Below the pieces are notes generated by a model. That model had not been told where the DNA came from and ran no database searches. It saw only the letters and a program-made list of their open reading frames with translations. Positions 8,927-39,564 of a DNA stretch of 49,065 bases are shown here, one piece after another; the stretch's first letter is position 1, and every line of letters begins with the position of its first letter. Position numbers and translations under genes: made by a program. Source of the DNA: Bacillota bacterium (GTDB taxonomy: Bacteria > Bacillota > UBA994); assembly GCA_018725535.1 (NCBI GenBank), contig QLUS01000001.1:1-49065 (forward strand), read 5' to 3'.

Positions 8927-10327
8927 CTACCGATTGAGACAGAACTCACGCGCTAGCGCTACAGCTTGCTCGCGGCCTGTTAGTCTACCCATGGCCGCCT
9001 GCTCGCTGAGATAGTCCATTGTCTCGCCTACCCACCTACCCGGGGGCAGCAACAGTTCGTGCATTAGTTCGGGCGCGGTAATTGGGAGCTCGGGACGAAT
9101 TACCTCTAGTTTCTTAAAAACCCAAGCCTCAAGGAAGGTCTCTGCCGCATGCACAATTCTTCCGTAGTTTTGCTCGTGTTGTGCTTGCTCCCCTTTGCCA
9201 AGGAAATCTGCCACCGCAAACAGGGCCAGCGGTACGCTTGCCTCACCGTAGCGCCGTGCTATGCGGTATAGGTGCCCGTTATGCAGGCGAGGCAACCTCC
9301 CTAGCTGGCCTAAGTACATGTGCCACCGCACAAAGCGAGCCAGTACCTTAGCTTCGGCTTGCGATAACTTAAGCCGCCCTGACACAGCCGACACCATCTC
9401 CTGCCCAACCTGTTCGTGGCGATAGAAAGTGATCCTGCCGTCCTCGCGTAAGGCTTGAGTCGGTGGTTTTCCCATGTCATGCAATAGTGCGCCTAGCTTA
9501 CAGACGGCCTGCATGTGAAAGTCAAGCTCCGCTAGTTCTGCCTGCACGCGACTCCTGAGCTTCGTAGAAAGGAAATCGGGGGAGTGCCAAACTTGCACAT
9601 AAAAGCGAAACGCCTGACGGGAGTGTTCGTACACGCAGTAGTTGTGGTAGCGGTTCTGCGCAACGCCTTTCTCTCTGGATAGCTCCGGCAACACTGTCTC
9701 CCACACACCTGCGGTGTCCAGCCAATCAAGCACCAGAGGCGCGGATGGGGCGTTTAGGATGCGTGCCAACTCAGCCCACACTCGCTCCCCCGCGCATTCT
9801 TTGAGCAAGGAACTAGCCTGTGCGGCCTGCAGTGTGAGCAGAGCAGTCGGCGTAAACCCATATTCCGCCATCAAGCGGGCGGCACGCAGGATACGCACGG
9901 CGTCGTTTTGCAGGGCATGCTCATGTGTGGGGGAGAGCAGCTTCTCCTTGAGATGAGCCCTACCGCCGTAAGGGTCGTGTACTCTGTCTAGGCGGCGGTC
10001 TAGATAGTCGCCGAGCGAGAGGACCATGGAGTTTACCGTGAAATCGCGCTGTGCTAGGTTCTCTGCTAACTCGCCTGATAGCGGCGATATGTCGCAAGTT
10101 GCCCCACCAAGGACAAATCTAAAAAACCCTCGCTCCGCGCTGAGCGGAAAGGGCGAACGTCCAAGGACTTGCTCCATCTCAGCTAATGCGTCATGGAAGC
10201 AATGGGCGGGCAGTAAAAGGTCGATGTCAGGGCTATCCTGTTCTCGCCCCAAGAAAAGATCTCGCACTGCCCCGCCGACGACTAATATGTCCGTCAAGCG
10301 GCTCAATTGCCGCAGTCGCTCGAGCAT
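8927..10327 (-). CDS. cca: CCA-adding enzyme / poly(A) polymerase-family tRNA nucleotidyltransferase with HD domain
   Basis: Nucleotidyltransferase motif VVGGAVRDLFLG...DIDLLL and an HD domain (LLHDMGKP). Confidence 0.82.
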   Translation of the reverse strand: MLERLRQLSRLTDILVVGGAVRDLFLGREQDSPDIDLLLPAHCFHDALAEMEQVLGRSPFPLSAERGFFRFVLGGATCDISPLSGELAENLAQRDFTVNSMVLSLGDYLDRRLDRVHDPYGGRAHLKEKLLSPTHEHALQNDAVRILRAARLMAEYGFTPTALLTLQAAQASSLLKECAGERVWAELARILNAPSAPLVLDWLDTAGVWETVLPELSREKGVAQNRYHNYCVYEHSRQAFRFYVQVWHSPDFLSTKLRSRVQAELAELDFHMQAVCKLGALLHDMGKPPTQALREDGRITFYRHEQVGQEMVSAVSGRLKLSQAEAKVLARFVRWHMYLGQLGRLPRLHNGHLYRIARRYGEASVPLALFAVADFLGKGEQAQHEQNYGRIVHAAETFLEAWVFKKLEVIRPELPITAPELMHELLLPPGRWVGETMDYLSEQAAMGRLTGREQAVALAREFCLNR

Positions 10328-11746: not shown

Positions 11747-11759
11747 GTAGGTGTCAACT

Positions 11760-11940
11760 AAATACGCTGTGGGGTGCCCCTAGGCTTAGGGGTTAAAAGG
11801 GAATCAGGTGTAAATCCTGAGCGGTCCCGCCACTGTAACGGGTAGTGCCTACACTTGACCACTGTTCGCGCGGCGAATGGAAGGGATTAGGCACGTTACT
11901 CCCGTAGTCAGGAAACCTGCCCCAGAGCTAAGACGCCGTC
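11760..11940 (+). ncRNA. Cobalamin (B12) riboswitch
   Basis: Conserved core AAAAGGGAATCAGGTGTAAATCCTGAGCGGTCCCGCCACTGTAA and B12 box AGTCAGGAAACCTGCC. P1 pairing is CTGTGGGG / CCCCAGAG. It is followed by a terminator and a btuFCD-type operon. Confidence 0.9.
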
Positions 11941-12176: not shown

Positions 12177-13076
12177 ATGAAACGCATCATTCTTATCTCG
12201 CTCATACTTGCACTCGCTTTTGCCTTATCGGGTTGCGCCGTGCTGAACGTGCTGCAGCCGAGCATTGTCGTAACAGATGACTTAGGGCGGGAAGTACGCC
12301 TAGAGCGTACAGCTAGCCGCATTGTGTCGCTTGCCCCAAGTAACACCGAGATGCTCTTTGCCCTAGGTATCGAGGGAAAGATAGTCGGGGTGACAACCAA
12401 CTGCGATTATCCGGCACAAGCTGCGACCAAAGAAAAAGTGGGGTCTTTCGGTACCCCTTCGGTGGAAAAAATAGTGAGCCTCCGGCCCGACCTTGTCTTG
12501 GCTGCCAGTTTGCATAAGACTGTGGGCGAACAACTTGCGGCACTCGGTATTCCCGTGATCGTACTTAACGCCGAGAGCATTCAAGGGGTATTAGACAACG
12601 CAGAACTGCTCGGACGCGTTACCGGAGCGGTAAGAGGCGCAGCACAGCTTAAGCGGCAGATTAGCGCGGATCTTAATGCTGTGGACGAGCGTGTGCAGGC
12701 CCTGGCTAATGAACAGCGCCCGTTGGTTTACTACGAGGTGTGGTCTAACCCCATCATGACCGCAGGGCCAAACACCTTTCTGCATGAACTGATCACCCGC
12801 GCGGGCGGTATCAACCTCGGCGCAACTGCCACCACGAATTGGCCGACGCTTTCTCTGGAAGAGCTTCTGTCGCGGCAACCGCAGGTCATGTTCTACGGGC
12901 ACGCCACAGAGACGGTGGAGCAGATCAAAGCGCGCCCTGATTGGGGCAGCATCCCTGCACTGAGGGAGGGACGGGTGTATCTTGTAGACGAAAACCTGAT
13001 CCTGCGGCCGGGCCCGCGCATTGGACAAGCTTTGCGGCTACTTGCCTCCCAACTACATCCTGACCTATGGCGGTAG
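12177..13076 (+). CDS. btuF: Cobalamin/siderophore-type ABC transporter substrate-binding lipoprotein
   Basis: Lipoprotein signal with lipobox LSGC, a cluster A-II periplasmic binding fold (IVSLAPSNTEMLFALG...PDLVLA), and B12 riboswitch control. Confidence 0.85.
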   Translation: MKRIILISLILALAFALSGCAVLNVLQPSIVVTDDLGREVRLERTASRIVSLAPSNTEMLFALGIEGKIVGVTTNCDYPAQAATKEKVGSFGTPSVEKIVSLRPDLVLAASLHKTVGEQLAALGIPVIVLNAESIQGVLDNAELLGRVTGAVRGAAQLKRQISADLNAVDERVQALANEQRPLVYYEVWSNPIMTAGPNTFLHELITRAGGINLGATATTNWPTLSLEELLSRQPQVMFYGHATETVEQIKARPDWGSIPALREGRVYLVDENLILRPGPRIGQALRLLASQLHPDLWR

Positions 13077-14107
13077 CAAAAAGACCTGCCGTAGTTCGCC
13101 ATTGGTCGGTCAACGCCCTCTTGGGTCTGCTATTGGTGCTGGCTCTGTTCCTGAGTTTGCGGGTGGGAGCGGTGGACATTGCTCCCACCCGCCTTCTTGC
13201 TGCTTTGCAGGAATTAGTGACGGAGCCTACGAATACTTGGTCAGTTGATGCCGTGATTGCTTGGCGGTTAAGATTGCCAAGAGCGCTGCTAGCTGCGGCT
13301 GTCGGCGCCGCCTTAGCCACAGCCGGAGCCATCATGCAGGGGCTCTTGCACAACAGTTTGGCCGACTCCTTTGTGCTCGGGGTGTCATCGGGTGCAAGTC
13401 TCGGCGCTGCTATTGCCCTGCTGCTCGGGCTACGGTTCACGCTGTTCGGCCTCGGCACCGTAACCCCGCTGGCGTTTATGGGGGCTATGCTGGCGATGCT
13501 TGCCGTGCTCATCATTTCGCGGCGGGTTGCGGGCCAGTCAACCCTCGGGCTGCTGCTTGCGGGGATCGCTATGAGCAGCGCTTTGTCCGCCGTAGTCTCC
13601 TTCTTAGTGCTATTGAGCCGCGAGCGCATTAACCCGCTCTTGTTCTGGATGATGGGAGGCTTCGCGGGCCGCGGTTGGAATCACTTCTGGCTGATGCTCC
13701 CCTACTTCTTTATCAGCTTCTTGTTTGCCTATAGCTATCATCGCTACCTCACGGCGATTAACCTCGGTGATGCTACCGCGCATCACTTGGGGGTAGATGT
13801 CGGCAGAGTACGTCTGCTCCTCCTCGCTACAGCAGCGCTGCTGACGGCGGCAGCGGTGTCCGTAAGCGGTATGATTGGCTTTGTTGGCTTGATGACGCCG
13901 CATTTCGCACGCATGCTGGTGGGACAGCACTACCGCCGCCTCTTGCCTACAGCGGCTATGTGCGGTGCCGTTTTCCTCGCTTTCGCCGACCTCTTAGCCC
14001 GTGTGGTCATGCGGCCGCAGGAGCTGCCGGTCGGGATCATCACTGCTTTATGCGGCGGACCGTTCTTCTTGTGGCTCTTATCGCGCCAGCGTCAGGAGGT
14101 GGCATGA
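13067..14107 (+). CDS. btuC: FecCD-family ABC transporter permease
   Basis: 346 aa, about 9-10 TM helices, FecCD signatures (RLPRALLAAAVGAALATAGAIMQ, GFVGLMTPH, GGPFFLWLL). The start overlaps btuF. Confidence 0.88.
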   Translation: MAVAKRPAVVRHWSVNALLGLLLVLALFLSLRVGAVDIAPTRLLAALQELVTEPTNTWSVDAVIAWRLRLPRALLAAAVGAALATAGAIMQGLLHNSLADSFVLGVSSGASLGAAIALLLGLRFTLFGLGTVTPLAFMGAMLAMLAVLIISRRVAGQSTLGLLLAGIAMSSALSAVVSFLVLLSRERINPLLFWMMGGFAGRGWNHFWLMLPYFFISFLFAYSYHRYLTAINLGDATAHHLGVDVGRVRLLLLATAALLTAAAVSVSGMIGFVGLMTPHFARMLVGQHYRRLLPTAAMCGAVFLAFADLLARVVMRPQELPVGIITALCGGPFFLWLLSRQRQEVA

Positions 14108-14916
14108 TGCCAGCCTTGAGTGTGGAGAACGTGTCATTTCGCTTTACTCAGCCTGTGCTCTGCGGCGTGTATGCGGACTTTGAGCAAGGCACTTTTTCGG
14201 GCATCCTGGGTGCAAACGGCGTAGGCAAATCAACCCTCGTTAAGCTAATCAGCCGTTGGTTGCCAATGCAGGATGGCGCGATCCGCGTCCACAACCGCCC
14301 GCTCGATACGTTTAATCAGCGCGAGCTGGCCCGCTATGTGGCCGTCGTTCCGCAGGAGCAGGCACATATCACGGAGCTGACAGTCCGGGAGATTGTAGAG
14401 CTTGGTCGCATTCCGCACCAAGGGTTACTTGCTCCCCCTACTGCGGCTGACAGGCGCGCAGTAGACGATGCGCTCGCACAGACAGGGCTACAAGGACTAG
14501 AGACGCGGAGCTTCGCCACGCTTAGCGGTGGGGAGCGACAGCGCGTACGCGTGGCTATGGCCCTAGCCCAGGCGGCCGACATCTTAATCCTCGATGAGCC
14601 TACATCCCATCTCGACATACGATATCAAATAGAGCTGTTGACTCTGCTGGGCGAACTAGTGACCAAGGGATACACAGTGGTAGCCGTGCTGCACGACATT
14701 AACCTAGCGGCGCTCTTTTGCGATCACCTAGTGCTACTCGCTGACGGTCGCGTGCTCCGCGCAGGCCCGCCAGCGGAGGTAATAACGCGTGAGGCCATCT
14801 TAGAGGCGTACCAATGCGATGTCTCGTTGCTTTCCCACCCGACAGTCAACGTACCCCAGATTGCGCTGACGCGCAATAGGAAGCAGCAAATTCCCGGGAG
14901 GGCTGTGTGTGATTGA
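14104..14916 (+). CDS. btuD: ABC transporter ATP-binding protein
   Basis: Walker A GANGVGKST, signature LSGGERQR, Walker B ILILDEPTSHLD. ATG 14104 overlaps the btuC stop (ATGA). The longer ORF-track start at 13960 lies inside btuC. Confidence 0.9.
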   Translation: MMPALSVENVSFRFTQPVLCGVYADFEQGTFSGILGANGVGKSTLVKLISRWLPMQDGAIRVHNRPLDTFNQRELARYVAVVPQEQAHITELTVREIVELGRIPHQGLLAPPTAADRRAVDDALAQTGLQGLETRSFATLSGGERQRVRVAMALAQAADILILDEPTSHLDIRYQIELLTLLGELVTKGYTVVAVLHDINLAALFCDHLVLLADGRVLRAGPPAEVITREAILEAYQCDVSLLSHPTVNVPQIALTRNRKQQIPGRAVCD

Positions 14917-19611: not shown

Positions 19612-20323
19612 CTATTTGACCGTCAAGAAAAGGGAGTGGGCCGCCCTCTCTGCCAGCTCTAAAGCTATATTGTATGGCAACAGATCAATGATCAAAATTA
19701 CTGCGGCGAGCACAACCATAGGAACCAGCATGGCTAGAGGCACATCCCGCTTAGTTTGCGCCTGCGCAGTATGGGCAAGACCTTCGCCAAAGAAAGCGTT
19801 TTGTATGAGCGGGAATAAGCATAAGATACCTGTAGCCCGCGCGCATCGCTTCGGCAGTCTCTTCATGTATGACTAGGACATACGCCGAAAGCGACATCAT
19901 CTCAAAAAACAGGAAGAAGGTAAACAAGTCGCCGCTCAAAATAACACCCATGGCCCCCGCTAAGGTTAGCACCGAGAAAGGATAATACCGGTTCTTGGCA
20001 TGCTCCTTGACCATGTAGACGGTACTATAGATGGTCACTAACAGCCATACAAAGGAAACTACTGCCGCAACAAGAAACCCCAAATGATCCATGCGGAAAG
20101 AAACGCCAAGCGGCGGTAAGAGCTCAGGGAATTCCGCCACTAGCGTTACATCGGCCATAATGGTGCGGTAGTGCTGTACCACCAGCAAGAACGAGGATAG
20201 AGCTGCTGCCACGGAAAGGCCGTTGCGCAGCTGCCATGACCGTTGCCCGACGGCGTAGATGACGACGGCAAGCATCAGGGGCACCATCACGGGCAGAGTC
20301 AACGCATAAGACGTAGCTTGCAC
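19612..20323 (-). pseudogene. MnhD/NuoN-like antiporter subunit remnant (large internal out-of-frame deletion)
   Basis: ORF 20323..19751 encodes only the first 170 or so residues of an MnhD-like protein, up to FFEMMSLSAYVLVIHEETAEAMRAGYRYL, then runs out of frame. The overlapping ORF 19866..19612 carries only the C-terminal end (LFPLIQNAFFGEG...MLVPMVVLAAVILIIDLLP). Compare the C-terminus of the intact 488-aa paralogue, YFPIIISAFFGRD. Confidence 0.65.
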
Positions 20324-24258: not shown

Positions 24259-25103
24259 TTATTTGCTTGGTGCCTTTTCTAGAGCCTCGATCACCGCTTG
24301 CACAAACCCTTCGCTTGAGCCGGTGGCACCCGAAACGGCGTCAACCTCTGGATCCTGCTCCCTGATGACTGCCCGCGTAAGCTCCACAAACGCCGCATTG
24401 GCGTACTCCGGCGTATCCTCATGGGCTACGACACGTACGTTTTCCACCCTGCCGGACTTGACCGTGACGGACACTTTAATGGTTCCAAACAAACCGCGTC
24501 CTTCGCCCGGATACTCCCCGTCAGGAATTGTGGCGATGTCCCGCGTAAACCTGTCTACCGGAACAGGCGCAGCCCCCCCAGTACGTGCTGCTGGAACAAG
24601 GCTAGCGCATTTCTAACCCCAGTGGTTACACCGCGTACAGACAATGTCGCGCCGGAGATGGCCTGTATGTCGCCTCCCACAGCAAGCGGGTCACGCACAG
24701 TTTTACCCGTAAACTGCCCGAGAAAAGCAGGCGCAGTCACCCGGTCGCCAATCCCCGGCGTCTCACGCTGTCCGGTAATGCGCACGCCCCGCACCGCGCC
24801 AGCCATATCCACTGCGACGAGCAAGCTAATCGGGCCGGCATAGCCGCCACCCGCACTCTGCATGATCGCACCTACTAGCTTCCCATCCTTAGTGGCAAGA
24901 AAATAGGTAATATTATCGCGTGAAGTTTCCTCAAACTTGTCCGCCATAGGAAAAAGCTCACCGAGAGCGCGCTGTAGTTCTGCTTGTTTACGCTCTGAGA
25001 TAACCGCGCTAGTGACGGAGTAGGTAGCTGCTAAGGCTGCCCCCGCTATGGCACAGATTAATGCGAGCGTTACGCTAAGCTTAAAGACATCCTTCATCAA
25101 CAA
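24259..25103 (-). pseudogene. RnfG-like membrane-anchored protein with two FMN-binding domains, split by a frameshift in a G7 run
   Basis: ORF 25103..24555 has an N-terminal TM anchor and an FMN_bind domain (GDIQAISGATLSVRG). ORF 24492..24259 is the C-terminal part of a second FMN_bind domain (FGTIKVSVTV...EVDAVSGATGSSEGF). The missing N-terminal part (AAPVPVDRFTRDIATIPDGEYPGEGRGL) is open in the second frame. Adding one G to the G7 tract (24573..24579) fuses everything into 282 codons. Confidence 0.7.
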
Positions 25104-25160: not shown

Positions 25161-26222
25161 CTAACCAAGAGAAAGATGCCCCCGCGAGTAAAGCACGAGG
25201 AAGTCCCGCGCTGCGCGCTCCCACGTAAACGCACGGCTCCGCAGAAGACTAGCCTGGGCCATTGTCTGGCGTTGACTGGGATTTGACACTGCCGCGTCAA
25301 GCCCGTTTGTCCAAGCGTTCGCATCCGCAATTGGCGGATAGTGCCCGGCATGCGGCCCTACTACTTCCGGCACACTCCCCCTAAAACTTGCTACAATTGG
25401 CAATGCCGTGCCCATGGCGGGCAGACAAATGTGACCGTCTGCTGCACGATCCTGTGCAGGCTACAGAAACATGTCGGCGGCTCGATACACCTTTGGTATA
25501 AGAGCATCTACAGCGATTACTCTATCTGAAGAGACCATAGGCGAGCTACCCACCACCACGAGCCTAAGGCGGCTTAGTGCCGCAGTAGACCAGCAATGGA
25601 GGAGCAACTCCCGCCCTTTATCGCCATGCGGCGCGTAGGCCAATAACGCCAGCGTTTCATCTGGTTCCACTGCCCAGAGCATACGCTGTCTTAACCTCTC
25701 CCGCATAAGGCCCCTGTCAGAGAGGGCGGGACGAAAGACCGACCCATCGACGCCGGGATAAACGACATTCACCCATAGCCGCAGACCATAATACCTGCCA
25801 ACAAAGAGGCTCTTCAGGAAGAAACTGCTGAGCACAACTTGATCCACCCAACAGAGGGACATGCGCAAAGCACGGCGCGAAATCGCGTCGCCCGAGAGAG
25901 GCGGCAGCGAATGTAAATTTAACACCACATATCCTTGGAAAACTTGACGCACCTCGGGCACTAACCAAGGGCAGTTCTCAACTTGCACTACAGTCGGTCG
26001 CGTCTCCCTGAGAACCGGCCTGAGCACATCCGCACGCGGCGGGAGCGGCCAGCGGTACAGGCGTACACCTAACAACTCCGGCACTTCCATGTTCGCCGGC
26101 AGGACCATTGCGACCTCTATACCCTGCCTAGAAAGGAGAGCAGCCATCTTAAAGACATGTAGGTGTGACTCGTCCCCCGCAAGTCTCGGCACGTCCGGCG
26201 GCAGTACATACAGAACTTTCAC
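25161..26222 (-). pseudogene. GT-B (family 1/4-like) glycosyltransferase interrupted by an in-frame TAG
   Basis: ORFs 26222..25461 and 25415..25161 are in the same frame: ...YRAADMFL-TAG-PAQDRAADGHICLPAMGTALPIVASFRGSVPEVV.... This spans the usual GT1 C-terminal motif region (ADvfv.PS..E.fG...lEAMa.G.PvVas), whose acidic residues are degenerate here. Confidence 0.6.
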
Positions 26223-26285: not shown

Positions 26286-26963
26286 TTAGAGGCTACGAAA
26301 GATTAGATACAGGCCTACGCCAACAAACAACAGACCCGCAACATATGCTCCAAAGTCCCAATATCTGCTTAAGCCCCGCCATGTTCGCAGGGCCCCAGCT
26401 ACACTTCCCACGACAAGCAAAGGCACGCCCTGACCCAAGCCAAAGGCAAACAACAATAACCCGCCTGTGAAAATTCGCCCGGAGGCCGCAGCAACGCCGA
26501 CGATAATCCCAAGCACCGGGCCCGCGCAGGGTGAGGCTGCGAGCCCAAACGCCAGTCCCACCAAGAAGGCCCCAAACAAGCCATGTGCCCGTACGGGCAT
26601 CTTAGCGATACTTTTCGTAGGTAGATGAATCATCTGCATTAAGCTAAGTCCCATGATGAGTAAAACAACCCCAAGCAGCACAGGGGCGATATTGGACGTG
26701 ATGCCAATTATGCCGCCTAGGAGAGCCGCCATAAGGCCGAGTGCCGTAAACGCCGTAGAAAGTCCCAGTACTAGGCTCAACACCAGAAAAAGGCTGCGCC
26801 GTGTCTTAATGCTCCCACTGACGCCTACATATCCCAAAACCAAAGGCATCATGGCGATAATGCAGGGGGAAAGGCTCGTTAAGACCCCAGCGGCAAATGA
26901 AGCCAGTAGCGCTAGACCTAGATGTCCGACGAGTATACTTTGCAGTGACTCAAGCGTTATCAC
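26286..26963 (-). CDS. ccdA: Cytochrome c biogenesis / thiol-disulfide electron transporter CcdA (DsbD family)
   Basis: Six TM helices with the two conserved Cys motifs (LSPCIIAMMPL and ASPCAGPVLG). The GTG start overlaps the upstream TGA (GTGA). Confidence 0.88.
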   Translation of the reverse strand: MITLESLQSILVGHLGLALLASFAAGVLTSLSPCIIAMMPLVLGYVGVSGSIKTRRSLFLVLSLVLGLSTAFTALGLMAALLGGIIGITSNIAPVLLGVVLLIMGLSLMQMIHLPTKSIAKMPVRAHGLFGAFLVGLAFGLAASPCAGPVLGIIVGVAAASGRIFTGGLLLFAFGLGQGVPLLVVGSVAGALRTWRGLSRYWDFGAYVAGLLFVGVGLYLIFRSL

Positions 26964-27388
26964 GGGGCCATCCCTCGAACAAGAAAGCGCCGCAGTTCCT
27001 CCTTAGACATGCTGCCGACCGCGTGGTGTTCCCGTCCGTTTGCATCGATCATAACAAAGTGGGGGATCGCCCGAAGATTAAAGCGACGCCCTAGCTCTAT
27101 GGTTTCATCTACCCTAATGTCCGCTACAATAAAAGTAACTCGCCCGAACTCGGCTTTAAGCTCCCGCACCGCGGGATACATTACTACACAGGAACGTCAC
27201 GTATCGGAAGTGAACATCACGAAAACCGGCACGCGCTCTGCAGTCGCCCGCTGAAACTCCGTCAAGGGCATGGCCGTTTTAAGATCGTCCCCGCCGCTGG
27301 GTCGCGCAAGGAACCAAGCCACAACTGCCACGAGCAGCACCAGTAAGACGGATACGCTACGCTTCACCGCCGCCACCCTCCCAAACAT
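26960..27388 (-). CDS. Membrane-anchored thioredoxin-like protein, predicted selenoprotein (U-x-x-C)
   Basis: Two in-frame ORFs are joined through TGA 27199..27197. The product has a TM anchor (VLLVLLVAVVAWFL) and a thioredoxin fold VPVFVMFTSDT-U-RSC-VVMYPAVRELKAEFG...AIPHFVMIDANG. The UGA falls at the first Cys position of CXXC, and a SECIS-like hairpin lies 21 nt downstream. Confidence 0.65.
27162..27176 (-). promoter_or_regulatory. Candidate bacterial SECIS hairpin
   Basis: The mRNA reads UGA, then 20 nt, then UCCCGC-GGU-GCGGGA (6-bp GC-rich stem, G-containing apical loop about 27 nt from UGA). A possible outer helix AGUAA/UUACU encloses it. Confidence 0.45.
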
Positions 27389-28358
27389 CCGTCAAAATAC
27401 TGCACTCCAAACGTTTATCCCATGCCGACCAGCGCTCACCGAGGGATACCGTTTCGGCAATAATCTTCTCGACCTGGGCCAGTCTGCTGCTGGTATAGTC
27501 GGCTAGGTGTAGTGCCACTGCGTTAGCAGTTTTCGGTTCCTCGGGTGAACCCCATTCCCGCTTACCGTGATGGCTAAGAACGAGGTGTTGCAGCTCATCT
27601 CGCAAGGTTGTCGGGAAGGCAGGCATGCGTTCGGTCAGGCTGCTAATTAACTCCGCTCCCAGCACCACATGGCCGATGAGCTTGCCTCTGTCTGTAACTT
27701 CAAAGCCAAACGCGCGCGGCTCATACTCCTGCGTTTTCGCCGCATCGTGAAGAATGGCCCCCACAATTAGCAGGTCGCGGTTAAGACGCGCGCCCTGCAC
27801 CTGTACCATGCGCTCGACATAAGCTATGACTTCTAGCGTGTGCATAAGGAGTCCACCCACAAAAGCGTGGTGTACATCACGACCTGCAGGCGCCTGCTGA
27901 AAGGCATGCCTTACCTCAGGTAGGGAAAAATGTAAGACCAGCAGATCCCGTAAGCACGGCGTCTTGATGCTTGCCATAATTTCCTCGAGTTCCCGCCACA
28001 TCGCTGCTAAGGGACGCGGGGGTGGCGCAGAAAAATCCGCGGCGTCAACTTCCGCAAGGTTCGCGCGCGTTATTTCCTCGATGTAAATTTGCTTGTCTCC
28101 GCGGTAATCCTGGACTCGCCCCGACACCAACACAATGTCGTCTTTGCGATAGGAGTTGTCGCTCGTAAGCGCCTCGTTCCAAGCCACGGCCGACACCCTG
28201 CCGGTACGGTCACCCAGCGACAACACCATGCCGCACGCGGGCACCCCGTTCTTGTTGTAATTAACAAGCCTTTTGTCAATCACAAAGAAGTGGCTCTTCA
28301 CCTGCGCCCCAACCACTAGGTCTTTCGCGTATATCTTCGTCAGCCCGCCTGTGCGCAT
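27357..28358 (-). CDS. yhaM: 3'-5' exoribonuclease YhaM (OB-fold + HD domain)
   Basis: N-terminal OB fold (VSAVAWNEA...VLVSGRVQDYRGDKQI) and HD domain (HHAFVGGLLMHTLEV, ILHDAAK). Confidence 0.8.
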   Translation of the reverse strand: MRTGGLTKIYAKDLVVGAQVKSHFFVIDKRLVNYNKNGVPACGMVLSLGDRTGRVSAVAWNEALTSDNSYRKDDIVLVSGRVQDYRGDKQIYIEEITRANLAEVDAADFSAPPPRPLAAMWRELEEIMASIKTPCLRDLLVLHFSLPEVRHAFQQAPAGRDVHHAFVGGLLMHTLEVIAYVERMVQVQGARLNRDLLIVGAILHDAAKTQEYEPRAFGFEVTDRGKLIGHVVLGAELISSLTERMPAFPTTLRDELQHLVLSHHGKREWGSPEEPKTANAVALHLADYTSSRLAQVEKIIAETVSLGERWSAWDKRLECSILTDVWEGGGGEA

Positions 28359-35551: not shown

Positions 35552-36808
35552 TTAATCCCCCCTCGGCAGCGGTATTTGCACGCTAAACGTACTGCCCTTA
35601 CCCTGCTCACTACGCACCGAAATTTCGCCGGCGAGACTTTGAGCTATGGCTTTTACCTGAGCCAGGCCTAAACCTGTAGAGGCTTGCCCTGTGTCGGGGT
35701 TATACTTCGTCGTGTACCCAGGTTCAAAGACTACGCGTAGGTCTTGTTCGCTAATCCCTATGCCTGTATCTCGCACGGCAATATGTAAGTCCATGTCGAG
35801 GACCCGTACGTCTAACCACACAGTGCCCACATGTGGTATGGCTTCGATGGCGTTGCCCATCAGGTTGTTAATAATAGCTAGTATGCGGTGGTAGGCCGCG
35901 ACTTCTGCCTGCCCTTCAATAGAAGAGTGAATGGCAATGTCTTTGCCCTGCTCGTTCGCTAGGGCTTGGTTTGCTTTTACCGCGACTTCTGCGAGTGTCT
36001 GCAGTGCCAGCAGTTTCCCCTGGCTTTCCTTAACCACCACATGGCGGAGCCGCGCCGCCAGACGGGCAAAATCTCGCTTGGCGTCGTGGATTTCCCTCGC
36101 CACGGCCAAGGCGGATTCGGCTTCATCGAGTCCTGATGTTTTTAGCCGCTTGTACAACTGGTGGCTCTGCACCATCACCGATTCTACTTGGGCCAGTGTG
36201 TTTTCAAGATAGAGCAACTCCCCAGTCACATCAGAGGTCAAGAGCAGTAGGCGCCGAAATTCGCGCTCTCTCTGCTCCTGCTTGATGATGACCTCGCGCT
36301 GCTGCCAAGCCGTGTAAGCGAGCCCGGTCAAGGCTCCCCTCACCAAGGCCACTAACCCTAGGAGGTAAACCATAGGTAGAATATCCCGATTAGCGAAATC
36401 TCCCCGAACCACAAGTTCACCGATGTTTGCGCCCATATCGAGAAAAGCCAGACCCCAGACTATGTCTAGCCCCCCGCTGTTTAGCCCCTGTCGCCACAGA
36501 GCCAGCCCCACACCCAGCAAGAGATAGAAAACTCCGGCGGGATAGTGTTTGTCGAGGCCTTGCAGCAACGGTACTTCCGCCAACAAGAAGCCAGCTCCGG
36601 CGCGAAATACTGTGACTGCTACACCCGTGGCCAAACCCGCCACCGGACGGTTCAAACGCTCATGCACCAAGAGATAAAAGCAAAACACACTCACCGCTAG
36701 GCTAAACCTAAACCCGGTGCCAAAGGGAAAGAAACTGAAGTTGCTTACAAAAACGGTGAGAAGCGCGAGATAGGTGAGCGACTTAGTGTTCTGCCACAGC
36801 TTCCACAC
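35552..36808 (-). CDS. glnK: Sensor histidine kinase, GlnK (YcbA)-like, polytopic N-terminal sensor
   Basis: Five or six N-terminal TM helices, a phospho-acceptor region (AREIHDAKRDF) and a GHKL ATPase (NLMGNAIEA, DTGIGI, GLGLAQV). It ends 1 nt before the regulator start. Confidence 0.75.
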   Translation of the reverse strand: MWKLWQNTKSLTYLALLTVFVSNFSFFPFGTGFRFSLAVSVFCFYLLVHERLNRPVAGLATGVAVTVFRAGAGFLLAEVPLLQGLDKHYPAGVFYLLLGVGLALWRQGLNSGGLDIVWGLAFLDMGANIGELVVRGDFANRDILPMVYLLGLVALVRGALTGLAYTAWQQREVIIKQEQREREFRRLLLLTSDVTGELLYLENTLAQVESVMVQSHQLYKRLKTSGLDEAESALAVAREIHDAKRDFARLAARLRHVVVKESQGKLLALQTLAEVAVKANQALANEQGKDIAIHSSIEGQAEVAAYHRILAIINNLMGNAIEAIPHVGTVWLDVRVLDMDLHIAVRDTGIGISEQDLRVVFEPGYTTKYNPDTGQASTGLGLAQVKAIAQSLAGEISVRSEQGKGSTFSVQIPLPRGD

Positions 36809-36825
36809 AGGTAAATGCCCGACCT

Positions 36826-38172
36826 CTAAGTCCCAGCGACAGCTAACGACCCAATAAATAGCGACGGCGCACCAATCGCACCCACGCCGAAATCAAGATC
36901 GTCGCCGATCGCTCTCACGTCAGAGAGCATAGCAAAGAAATTGCCCGCGATGGTAATCTGGTTGACGGGACGAACGATTTGGCCTCCTTTAACTAGATAG
37001 CCGTAGGCCGAGAGCGAGAAGTCGCCCGAGACCGGGTTAGCCCCGGCATGGGTGCCTTGGATGCTGGTAATCACCAGTCCGTCGCCCATAGCTGTAAGCA
37101 GCGCCTGGTAGCAGTTCCGCCCCGGCACAATGTAAAAATTACTGGGCGCAACACCCACAGGCGCATTGTAGGCAGCTTTATGCGCGTTGCCGGTGGACAT
37201 TACGCCTTCTTTTTTGGCGGTCTTTTGGTTGTGGAGCAAAGTAATGAGTACGCCTCCTTCTACTACCGCTTTCTTGCGCGTGGGGAAGCCCTCGGCATCA
37301 AAGGGAGCCGCGTTTGGGCGCTCCGCTAGATGTGGGTCATCCATGATGGTGACTATTTCGCTCATAATGCGCTCGTTAACCTTGCCCTTCAAGAGCGACA
37401 TCCCTTTCTGCGCCGCATCAGCCGAGAAGGATGAGGCAAACGCCGACAAGAAGGTGAGCGCGACGTCTTTGCGCAGTATCACGGGGTAATTGCCGGAGGG
37501 CACCGGCTCCGCACCTAGGAGCGACAACGCTTCTTCTACAGCTTCCTTGGCCAGTTTCGCCGCGTCAAAACGCGAAAAGTCGCGGGCCGCCACAAAGGCA
37601 TAGGACTGCTTGGTGTCCGCTCCCTCTTTAACTACTGCCGATATGTACCCAGCGGCGAAATTATCTCGGTGGCTTAACTTGAGACCATGTGAATTCATAA
37701 TCAGCGTTTCCCCGGAGGTATCACCTACGCTTACTTGCGCCGTGAAGACCCGGTTATCAAGCGCGTAGGCCTGTTCTTCCACCGCCTTAACCCAAGCTAT
37801 TTTTTCACTGGCGGGAACTTCCGGCAAAGACTCGCTAAAGGCATCAATGTGCGTGTAGTTGTCCGGCGCTGCTCCCGTAAAGATTTCCTCGCCTTCGTCG
37901 CCGTCCATGATTGCCGCATTCTCCAAAGCATCCTTAAGCAGCGTCTCCATGCCCTCGTCAGCAAGGTTCTCGGTGAAGGAGTATCCCATCTTGCCGTTAA
38001 TCAGACCACGGAACATCAGGCCGCGGGATTCCGCTAGGGTGTAACTGTCAATTTCTGTCTTGAAAACTCCTACGCGAAACTGATTGCGCGAAGATGCGTA
38101 GACCTCCATATCCCTAAAGCCCACGGTGCGGCCGCGTGTAAAGAGCGCTTTCGCAAAGCTCTGTACATCCAC
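36826..38172 (-). CDS. pmbA: TldE/PmbA-family metalloprotease subunit
   Basis: 448 aa of the TldD/PmbA family (C-terminal GDFSLSAYGYLVKGGQIVRPV...GAPSLFI). It directly abuts tldD. Confidence 0.82.
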   Translation of the reverse strand: MDVQSFAKALFTRGRTVGFRDMEVYASSRNQFRVGVFKTEIDSYTLAESRGLMFRGLINGKMGYSFTENLADEGMETLLKDALENAAIMDGDEGEEIFTGAAPDNYTHIDAFSESLPEVPASEKIAWVKAVEEQAYALDNRVFTAQVSVGDTSGETLIMNSHGLKLSHRDNFAAGYISAVVKEGADTKQSYAFVAARDFSRFDAAKLAKEAVEEALSLLGAEPVPSGNYPVILRKDVALTFLSAFASSFSADAAQKGMSLLKGKVNERIMSEIVTIMDDPHLAERPNAAPFDAEGFPTRKKAVVEGGVLITLLHNQKTAKKEGVMSTGNAHKAAYNAPVGVAPSNFYIVPGRNCYQALLTAMGDGLVITSIQGTHAGANPVSGDFSLSAYGYLVKGGQIVRPVNQITIAGNFFAMLSDVRAIGDDLDFGVGAIGAPSLFIGSLAVAGT

Positions 38173-39564
38173 TTATTTGTCCCCCTTTCGTCCGCCGACG
38201 GTAATCTCTGATACGCGAATGGTTGGCTGACCCACGTCCGTCGGAACACTGCCGCTCAGTGAGCCGCACATGCCTTGCCCACAAGCGAGGTTATTGGCTA
38301 CCATGTCAATGCGCATTAATATCTCTGATCCCTTGCCAATCAAGCTAGCACCCCGCACCGGCTCCATAACCTTGCCGTTTCGCACCATGTACGCTTCGTT
38401 GACCGCGAAGTTAAACTCACCTGTCGCGGGATTAACTGAGCCGCCACCCATGTATCTGGCAAACAACCCGTACTCAGTGTTGGCGATAATTTCGTCTTTG
38501 GAATAGGGGCCCGGTAAGATAAAGGTGTTCGTCATACGCGAAGTGGGCGCGAACTTATAGGACTGGCGGCGGGAATTGCCCGTAGCCTTCGCCTGCATCC
38601 GCCGTCCGTTTAGCATGTCAACGAGATAACCCCTGAGGATGCCGTTTTCAATCAACAGATTTCGCCGCGTGGGGTGCCCCTCGTCATCCACGTTAAGGCT
38701 CCCCCAAGAATTGGGAATCGTGCCGTCGTCTACAGCGCTGACCGCTTCCGAAGCAATCTTCTCACCTATTTTATCGGCAAACACGGAGGTTTTCTTGGCC
38801 ACCGCAGTCGCCTCTAAGCTATGACCGCAAGCCTCGTGAAAAATTACCCCGCCAAACTCATTGTCGATAATCACCGGCATGCGGTCGCTTGGCGCGTAAT
38901 CGGCATGAATCATGGTGCTGGCAATACGTGCCGCCTCCCGCGCGTAAGTATCGATGTCTATCTTGTCGTAAAACTCAAACCCCATGTGGGCCCCGGGCGC
39001 ATAGGTGCCGGACTGCTTTTCGGTGCCCTTTGAGGCAATAGCCGTAATGCCGGTGCGCGTGCGCACACGGCGATCTTCAACTAGGAGGCCGCTAGAATTC
39101 GCGATTTGCACATGTTGGTCCTCGTCAAAGTAGCGCACCGAAACTTGCGAAATAATGAGGTCATATTCTTTGGCCACCTGATAGGCACGCGTCATTATGG
39201 CTACTTTGCGCTGTTTGTCAATTGTGTGAGGAAGGGTATGGATCAGATTTACTTGGGGCAACGTTCCCTTTAGCAAGTTCAAGCATCGGGTTCCGCTTAC
39301 ACCCGGCAGCGCCTCCGCCGCCTCTTTGGCTACTCGCAAGAGGCTCTCGCGGCTACCGTCGTTGGTGTAGGCATAGACGCAATTCGTACCCTGAAAAATG
39401 CGTATGCCTATCCCGTATTCCCGCCCTGATACGCTACTGTCCACTTTCCCCCCGACCATAGATAGGGTGTTGCTGAAGCGGTCCTCAACAAAGACCTCCG
39501 CGAAGTCGCCCCCGGTGCCGAGGGCCGCCGTAATGCAATCTTCTAGCAGGGCTTTTGCCAGCAT
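38173..39564 (-). CDS. tldD: TldD-family metalloprotease
   Basis: The HExxxH-type motif FHEACGHSLEA and the TldD C-terminal beta-domain are present. ATG 39564 follows AAAGGAGGAG. The ORF-track extension to 39813 overlaps the aminotransferase gene. Confidence 0.85.
   Translation of the reverse strand: MLAKALLEDCITAALGTGGDFAEVFVEDRFSNTLSMVGGKVDSSVSGREYGIGIRIFQGTNCVYAYTNDGSRESLLRVAKEAAEALPGVSGTRCLNLLKGTLPQVNLIHTLPHTIDKQRKVAIMTRAYQVAKEYDLIISQVSVRYFDEDQHVQIANSSGLLVEDRRVRTRTGITAIASKGTEKQSGTYAPGAHMGFEFYDKIDIDTYAREAARIASTMIHADYAPSDRMPVIIDNEFGGVIFHEACGHSLEATAVAKKTSVFADKIGEKIASEAVSAVDDGTIPNSWGSLNVDDEGHPTRRNLLIENGILRGYLVDMLNGRRMQAKATGNSRRQSYKFAPTSRMTNTFILPGPYSKDEIIANTEYGLFARYMGGGSVNPATGEFNFAVNEAYMVRNGKVMEPVRGASLIGKGSEILMRIDMVANNLACGQGMCGSLSGSVPTDVGQPTIRVSEITVGGRKGDK

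Follow-up and report, generated by a model that had tools for sequence, protein, structure and literature searches.

The question raised by this locus is whether an in-frame TGA triplet within a bacterial thioredoxin-like gene is a stop codon or a codon for selenocysteine (Sec, U). The gene lies on the minus strand of a 49,065-nucleotide (nt) stretch of DNA from a Bacillota bacterium of the class UBA994 (GenBank assembly GCA_018725535.1, contig QLUS01000001.1, positions 1 to 49,065), hereafter termed the window, and is followed directly by ccdA. A preliminary description of the window, made from its sequence, proposed that the TGA occupies the position of the first cysteine of a thioredoxin CxxC motif and encodes Sec in a UxxC selenoprotein coupled to ccdA. 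The analysis presented here indicates that positions 27367..26960 very probably encode one 135-residue protein in which the UGA is read as Sec and, by analogy with characterized systems, that this protein likely serves as an extracytoplasmic reductase fed with electrons by CcdA. Five features that define a bacterial selenoprotein gene can be judged from sequence, and four of them are present here; the remaining one is the decoding machinery. The coordinates of the locus are collected in Table 1.

The coding frame is continuous across the TGA. Two minus-strand open reading frames (ORFs), 27388..27197 and 27181..26960, lie in the same frame, with the TGA (27199..27197) followed by the five sense codons CGT TCC TGT GTA GTA between them, and the coordinates and translation first given for them are exact. 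This TGA is the single interruption of the frame between 27367 and 26960, and the read-through translation is ...VPVFVMFTSDT-*-RSCVVMYPAVRELKAEFG...AIPHFVMIDANG...EELRRFLVRGMAP. While the single read-through frame of the preliminary description stands, its product length of 142 residues probably does not. The true start is probably GTG 27367, which is preceded by a Shine-Dalgarno (SD) site, rather than ATG 27388, which has no comparable site upstream; the product is therefore predicted to be 135 residues long, with the UGA as codon 57 and U57-R-S-C60 as the active-site motif. The start position is occupied by ATG or GTG in seven orthologs and by TTG in three, and the SD sequence GGGAGG is found in all seven orthologs with upstream sequence read (as GGGGAGG in locus L016). 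One difference in length from the closest relatives is noted within the coding region: at about 27125-27130 (minus strand) the window gene has one codon fewer (GRVTF versus GRRVTF), an in-frame deletion in the loop after helix alpha-1.

Both ends of the gene overlap its neighbors. The stop (TGA 26962..26960) shares the sequence GTGA with the GTG start of the next gene, as had been claimed, and this neighbor matches the CcdA family model PF02683. The overlap with ccdA is 4 nt (26960-26963), and that between the end of the upstream yhaM-like gene and the start of the thioredoxin gene is 11 nt (27357-27367). A consensus scan returned one promoter-like site (2.0 expected) and six terminator-like sites (4.2 expected), none above shuffled sequence and none at either gene junction. 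The two overlaps, together with the lack of promoter- or terminator-like sites at the junctions, suggest that the yhaM-like, thioredoxin and ccdA genes form a single, translationally coupled transcript.

Related loci carry the same interruption. The read-through sequence, searched by word index against 5.8 billion proteins, matched only four clusters, every one a 74-residue C-terminal fragment; the corresponding contigs have an ORF of 56-63 amino acids (aa), a 15-nt gap and a 74-aa ORF, in the gene order of the window. When the 78-residue fragment that follows the UGA served as query in an exhaustive HMMER scan, the matches were fragments of 66-76 aa, beginning at the same Met or shortly after it, and one continuous protein (P0018). 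Neither search recovered a full-length call of the selenothioredoxin. Gene callers had been expected to split this gene, and every public call recovered (NCBI, JGI, ENA and Logan) is indeed a fragment: a C-terminal one of 66-76 aa, usually with an adjacent N-terminal one of 55-63 aa. At the DNA level, which was examined for the loci of all recovered matches and for three GTDB species from a genome scan, every one of the 14 TGA-type lineages has the TGA in this column, down to about 40% amino acid identity. The motifs of these lineages are U-R-[STA]-C, U-P-[AST]-C, U-A-S-C, U-T-Y-C and U-P-P-C. Measured against the window sequence, the ratio of nonsynonymous to synonymous substitution rates (dN/dS) amounts to 0.07-0.18 upstream of the TGA and to 0.17-0.25 downstream of it; by this measure, purifying selection acts on both halves in a single frame. 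Among orthologs, the five codons that separate the TGA from the ATG at 27181 differ only by synonymous or conservative changes. The Cys60 codon, which is TGC in six and TGT in five of 11 orthologs, always encodes Cys; this synonymous variation indicates that a stretch outside the conventional ORFs is translated.

These patterns bear on three alternative explanations. A pseudogene, or a TGA that arose as a sequencing or assembly error in the metagenome-assembled genome (MAG), is extremely improbable. The contig does contain other genes that are broken in comparison to relatives (FMN_bind, GT4 and an Mrp subunit), but the same TGA is common to independent NCBI, JGI, ENA and Logan assemblies from many samples and to 14 lineages, which excludes a miscalled TGC or TGT, and dN/dS is low on both sides; conservation effectively refutes this explanation. 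It is also very unlikely that the TGA is a true stop, in which case a 56-residue membrane peptide and a fragment of about 73 residues from ATG 27181 would form a split, single-Cys thioredoxin. All gene callers annotate the locus in this way and the ATG is found in 12 of the 14 TGA lineages, yet it is ATA (Ile) in UBA994 (L016, ~10184-10186) and GCT (Ala) in L027 (after U-PTC-VI), and it has no SD upstream in the window sequence. Furthermore, the invariant Cys codon, with its synonymous TGT/TGC variation, lies in the 15-nt interval that separates TGA and ATG, the frame and the five-codon spacing are unchanged in every lineage, and the ortholog with Cys in place of the UGA is a continuous ORF. 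In the annotation of L016 and L027, the C-terminal fragment is missed or called from a later Met. A third alternative, that the organism's code reads UGA as sense (Trp or Gly), has a next to negligible probability: nothing beyond the in-frame TGA itself favors it, TGA ends eight of the 33 Pfam-supported genes of the window (this one included), and no other window gene needs UGA read-through, such that the variant code is refuted by stop usage. Because the TGA is conserved, dN/dS is low on both sides, the Cys60 codon varies synonymously, the internal ATG is lost in some lineages and TGA is in use as a normal stop, the sequence comparisons exclude sequencing error, pseudogene and variant code and, for practical purposes, two separate peptides.

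The UGA column is paired with Cys among homologs. The positional ortholog P0018 (locus L019) has TGT in this column (...FIMFTNKG-C-RSC-LAMYP..., motif CRSC) and is one continuous ORF, and the gene order of its locus is that of the window (M14 peptidase, NUDIX, kbl-like aminotransferase, HD/OB, Trx and CcdA). In an alignment of 25 full-length homologs, only both cysteines of the CxxC motif, the cis-Pro and one Gly are invariant. The column thus holds UGA in the 14 TGA lineages and Cys in the syntenic CRSC ortholog and in 24 more distant homologs; none of the homologs ends there by design or carries a residue other than Cys. The L019 locus has lost the hairpin that is conserved among the TGA-type orthologs and has a different one at 10095-10160 (CGGUGGUAG-AGAACC-UUAUCACCG, -9.9 kcal/mol), the loop of which lies 31 nt after the TGT. 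This second hairpin may be a fossil of a Sec insertion sequence (SECIS) left from a Sec-to-Cys conversion or may be due to chance.

In the TGA-type orthologs, the UGA is followed by a constrained RNA hairpin. The preliminary description placed UCCCGC-GGU-GCGGGA 20 nt after the UGA, with its loop at about 27 nt; the hairpin is present, with 20 nt from the UGA to the stem and 26 nt to the loop. The consensus of bacterial SECIS (bSECIS) elements, that of the bSECISearch model as quoted in a 2026 review (PMC13188914), includes a loop of 3-9 nt, a stem of 4-16 bp, a G within the two opening positions of the loop (usually then G/U), a spacing of 16-37 nt and a minimum free energy of -7.5 kcal/mol or lower. 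The window hairpin agrees with this consensus on every count (loop of 3 nt, stem of 6 bp, G within the loop's two leading positions, spacing of 26 nt and -8.9 kcal/mol) and differs in being very small, with a triloop and no bulge; it is, on sequence grounds, a putative SelB target. A simple hairpin of equal or better quality occurs in SECIS position for 2.8% of the 1199 TGA triplets of the window. RNAalifold, applied to 11 TGA-type orthologs, independently finds exactly this helix as the only consensus structure, and all 66 pair cells are standard pairs. One natural compensatory change occurs in L022, where CCC to CCU and CGG to CAG convert a C-G into a U-A pair and the 3' half of the change costs an Arg-to-Gln substitution. 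Synonymous sites provide a second measure of constraint. Among 26 degenerate codons that encode the same amino acid in all 11 sequences, 22 of 22 outside the hairpin vary, while three of the four inside it are frozen (TAT, GCG and GTG) and the fourth is the site of the compensated change (Fisher p ~0.0015, calculated in this analysis). This freezing of synonymous sites is a stronger signal of RNA constraint than the covariation. At the corresponding place, a divergent clade (L025 and L029) has another hairpin, of 7 bp and -8.2 kcal/mol (UGGAGCC-CGUGAUAUU-GGCUCUA), and 23 nt separate its loop from the UGA. The context of L025 includes a spore-lipoprotein gene, and the assembly label of L029, "BRAZ22", is presumed to denote a Lost City metagenome.

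The capacity of the organism to decode Sec is indicated indirectly by its reported physiology. By exact sequence match, the window is a contig of a MAG with the locus-tag prefix DDT20. In Nobu et al. 2022, Table S3 lists DDT20 as bin HKB212 from Hakuba Happo, "SRB2", with a size of 1.75 Mb, a completeness of 89.4% and the GTDB lineage p__Firmicutes_D; c__UBA994; g__UBA994. The source spring at Hakuba Happo is a hyperalkaline serpentinite system with a pH of about 10.5-11, according to a paper abstract. Glycine reductase, which is an obligate selenoenzyme, is assigned to Hakuba SRB2 by the authors of the MAG (Nobu et al. 2022), whose only Hakuba SRB2 bin is HKB212. A search with a glycine reductase GrdA query, which was validated by Pfam at 266 bits, gave 7902 matches, and the best 120 of the 7902 are without names.

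The UGA could instead be recoded to a residue other than Sec, either to Cys by a tRNA with a UCA anticodon and a SelB-like factor or to Trp by near-cognate read-through. Cys-recoding variants of tRNA and SelB are described in some anaerobes, and UGA followed by C is a leaky terminator in Escherichia coli. In 11 of the 14 lineages C follows the UGA (in L020 it is G, in L025 A), and the Sec machinery is not seen in the window. However, the hairpin, with its GGU loop motif, fits the consensus of SelB-type SECIS elements, and the column corresponds to an invariant catalytic Cys in the Cys homologs, where Trp would abolish function, yet purifying selection acts throughout. The glycine reductase attributed to Hakuba SRB2 through its only Hakuba bin likewise argues against non-Sec recoding, which is considered unlikely. 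A broader form of the idea is that uncultured alkaliphilic Bacillota read UGA without the canonical Sec pathway, for example by a SECIS-like hairpin together with a non-canonical tRNA or SelB-like factor that inserts Cys or another residue. Several members of the family are from hyperalkaline, serpentinite-hosted sites (the source was checked for a minority of the samples). Such non-canonical decoding is quite unlikely; an uncatalogued selenoprotein subfamily, that of an exported, CcdA-fed selenothioredoxin, is more likely.

Several observations weigh against Sec insertion at this UGA and against the proposed role of the protein. The Cys ortholog also has a stable hairpin, and a hairpin at this position cannot be claimed as specific to the UGA. 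The covariation is a single event, a level reached by 44 of 500 shuffles, and is weak taken by itself. The 76-nt region as a whole folds without unusual energy (z = 0.27), with only the local hairpin standing out, and no Rfam family matches the hairpin region (Rfam in E-value mode). No selA, selB, selD or tRNA-Sec is found in the 49-kb window (ARAGORN, Rfam and Pfam on ~30 ORFs); similarly, tRNA scans of 11 related loci reveal no tRNA-Sec and none of the fetched loci has sel genes. The case for the decoding machinery draws on one sentence of a paper. Lastly, the topology, the flow of electrons through CcdA and the substrates are proposed by analogy.

The read-through product has a canonical thioredoxin fold, as had been recognized from its sequence. 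The match to PF00085 (E 5.7e-11, 42.8 bits versus a cutoff of 23.5, with Cys in place of U) is followed by PF13098 (Thioredoxin_2) as the second-best Pfam match (E 8.2e-9). In phmmer alignments to sequences of the Protein Data Bank (PDB), "tsdtCrsCvvmyP" is aligned to "yadWCgpCkmvaP" of thioredoxins, which places the UGA at the first, nucleophilic Cys of WCGPC, as claimed, with C60 at +3 and IPHF on the cis-Pro loop. An AlphaFold (AF2) model of the Cys ortholog has a mean confidence (pLDDT) of 93.7, with CRSC at residues 32-35 and the active-site helix at residues 33-49; a Foldseek search with this model gave 3gnj as the best match (TM-score 0.84) and 0.79 for spinach thioredoxin m. The scores against the NCBIfam TrxA/TrxC equivalogs TIGR01068, NF006898 and NF008229 are far below the respective cutoffs (37.3/96.8, 25.6/138 and 22.5/125 bits); thus, by family models, the protein is a relative with the thioredoxin fold and not the housekeeping TrxA. 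An NCBIfam scan of the read-through protein found no selenoprotein-specific model (e.g., SaoT, HUIPC-motif and VPGUxxT) and returned generic thioredoxin-type models, all below cutoff. The N-terminal membrane anchor of the preliminary description is borne out by a single strongly hydrophobic segment, with the highest 19-residue Kyte-Doolittle window at residues 3-21 (mean 2.39), after K2 and R3. By the positive-inside rule, this segment is predicted to be an uncleaved signal anchor of N-in/C-out orientation that would leave the thioredoxin domain outside the cytoplasmic membrane.

The thioredoxin gene is linked to ccdA in every locus with downstream sequence. The two SPC cysteines of CcdA (C34 and C146 in the window) are present in 11 of 11 orthologs checked, with an extra Cys in L001. 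The upstream HD/OB gene is syntenic in UBA994-type loci, whereas L024 has a CsoR-like gene in its place and L025 a Mur ligase gene; given these differences outside the class UBA994, the gene order indicates that Trx-CcdA is the conserved unit. In the CcdA systems of Bacillus subtilis (ResA and StoA) and Streptococcus pneumoniae (Etrx1 and Etrx2), electrons pass from cytoplasmic thioredoxin to CcdA and on to a protein of the thioredoxin fold at the membrane's outer face. A literature search found no paper that links a selenothioredoxin to CcdA within the library searched.

A mechanism is proposed in which translation would begin at GTG 27367, the ribosome would insert Sec at the UGA and translation would run on to the stop at 26960. 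The complex of SelB, GTP and Sec-tRNA(Sec) would be recruited by the hairpin, which is embedded in the codons for Y-P-A-V-R-E of helix alpha-1. The product would be a type-II (N-in) membrane-anchored classical thioredoxin with its U57/C60 active site and its thioredoxin domain on the outer side of the cytoplasmic membrane. CcdA, whose gene is translationally coupled to that of the thioredoxin, would use C34/C146 to move reducing equivalents across the membrane from the thioredoxin system of the cytoplasm, and these electrons would keep the selenenylsulfide reduced (a selenenylsulfide/selenol-thiol couple). The protein is thus envisioned to act in the reducing direction, as an extracytoplasmic (seleno)thiol-disulfide reductase.

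Among bacterial selenoproteins, UxxC proteins with the thioredoxin fold are the most common kind, and two selenoprotein families invite comparison. The first is "Thioredoxin (Trx), PF00085, UxxC", which is tabulated with the characterized families, ahead of the group "Predicted with high confidence" (PMC13188914). The window protein shares with this selenoprotein Trx the classical fold, Sec in place of the first Cys of CxxC and an intragenic SECIS just after the UGA. By contrast, the window protein is membrane-anchored, ccdA-coupled and predicted to be outside the cytoplasmic membrane rather than soluble and cytoplasmic; the comparison is to the catalogue description of the family, and the window protein scores 37 bits versus the TrxA equivalog cutoff of 96.8. 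The second is the thiol:disulfide interchange protein family (PF13098, UxxC), which is "predicted with high confidence" (PMC13188914). It resembles the window protein in being a UxxC thioredoxin-fold oxidoreductase that is probably extracytoplasmic, with PF13098 the second-best Pfam match here, and differs in that the best Pfam model for the window protein is PF00085; this family too is compared by description only.

Among proteins that use Cys, the closest parallels in organization are ResA, StoA, Etrx1 and Etrx2. Like the window protein, these are membrane-anchored or tethered thioredoxin-fold proteins that are beside, or dependent on, a two-Cys CcdA, and a cytoplasmic source of electrons is predicted for the window protein as well. 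The four proteins use Cys-x-x-Cys, in contrast to the predicted Sec of the window protein, and ResA and StoA are of the TlpA/Redoxin type. Substrates in systems of this type are apocytochrome c, spore-cortex factors and MsrAB. The window protein probably works in a similar manner, by analogy, but is not a member of the TlpA/Redoxin family, as no Redoxin or AhpC-TSA model matched in Pfam, where the classical Thioredoxin and Thioredoxin_2 models are best. TrxP of Bacteroides fragilis (PDB 3hxs/3hyp) is the best match among PDB sequences (E 2.5e-8) and shares the core over 83 residues, with CxxC and the cis-Pro; it has WCGPC with Cys, and neither Sec nor ccdA coupling in the comparison made.

A selenoprotein of this class would be expected by specialists and is a well-supported but unsurprising addition. 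If the UGA is read as Sec, all of the public annotations recovered are wrong alike, in that they give two "hypothetical" proteins (55-63 aa and 66-76 aa) in NCBI, JGI, ENA and Logan. Corrected annotation would add a selenoprotein to UBA994 (SRB2), a class without a cultured member, and would place a Sec active site that is fed by CcdA on the outer face of the membrane in an organism of a hyperalkaline spring. The locus is also a compact natural test case, with a 15-nt SECIS hairpin, a Cys ortholog and one natural compensatory mutant.

Table 1. Coordinates of the predicted selenothioredoxin gene, its elements and its neighbors in the window.
Feature	Position	Strand	Remarks
Complete predicted selenothioredoxin gene	26960..27367	-	135 codons including the predicted UGA-Sec at codon 57, plus stop; two ORFs in public annotation
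Shine-Dalgarno GGGAGGG	27376..27382	-	8 nt before the GTG start
N-terminal hydrophobic signal-anchor (predicted), residues ~5-21, VSVLLVLLVAVVAWFLA	27305..27355	-	K2 and R3 precede
Thioredoxin domain, residues 36-129	26981..27262	-	PF00085
In-frame TGA, predicted Sec codon U57	27197..27199	-	Column of the nucleophilic (first) Cys in the thioredoxin CxxC
TGT, resolving Cys60 of U-x-x-C	27188..27190	-	Outside any conventional ORF
Hairpin UCCCGC-GGU-GCGGGA	27162..27176	-	6 bp, GGU triloop, -8.9 kcal/mol
ccdA (DsbD_TM family, 225 aa)	26286..26963	-	PF02683, E 1.8e-23; GTG start overlaps the thioredoxin stop
Upstream HD/OB-fold (YhaM-like) gene	27357..28358	-	Pfam HD and tRNA_anti-codon; context only, outside the redox pair

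The names under which related genomes are deposited at NCBI suggested NPL-UPA2 as the lineage of the gene. This assignment is rejected, as Table S3 (Nobu et al. 2022) puts DDT20, DDT37 and DDT39 in SRB2/UBA994 and Unc8, a true NPL-UPA2 genome, lacks the whole gene block. In the same table, DDT37 is bin GPS119, of the same genus as HKB212, and the true NPL-UPA2 bins are DDT31-33. The label "candidate division NPL-UPA2 bacterium" that DDT37 (GPS119; L011/L015, QLUB01000013.1) and DDT39 carry at NCBI appears to be a taxonomy error. Among NPL-UPA2 MAGs, no sel genes are listed in the Unc8 gene table (PMC6305446 supplement) or in the Lost City MAG tables; the Unc8 table lacks selA, selB and selD, for a MAG of about 1 Mb that is 87.6% complete (PMC6305446). 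The fdhA of Unc8 is present as two coding sequences of 348 aa and 577 aa, on the same strand and in the same frame, 48 nt apart (Contig_2 36399-39227; PMC6305446), and this split is a classic Sec-FdhA signature.

Elsewhere in the window, three genes appear broken (at 19815/19816, 24259-25103 and 25161-26222), as judged against the ~90%-identical Cedars ortholog L011 or against L005. An Mrp antiporter subunit (494 aa) is missing ~770 bp internally, an FMN_bind gene is in two frames (182 aa and 77 aa versus 279 aa) and a GT4 glycosyltransferase is split (253 and 84 aa versus 342 aa in L005). These breaks may represent real decay or MAG assembly errors; no TGA read-through is involved. The left end of the contig has eight tRNA genes on the minus strand (98-2868), with tRNA-Val at 98-174 and a cluster of seven (Leu, Cys, Gly, Phe, Asp, Val and Arg) at 2091-2868; none of the eight is a tRNA-Sec. 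A cobalamin riboswitch (Rfam RF00174, 99.3 bits) is located at 11755-11938 on the plus strand, upstream of an operon for a periplasmic-binding protein, a FecCD permease and an ABC ATPase (12177-14916, plus strand), which is probably an uptake system for B12 or corrinoids.

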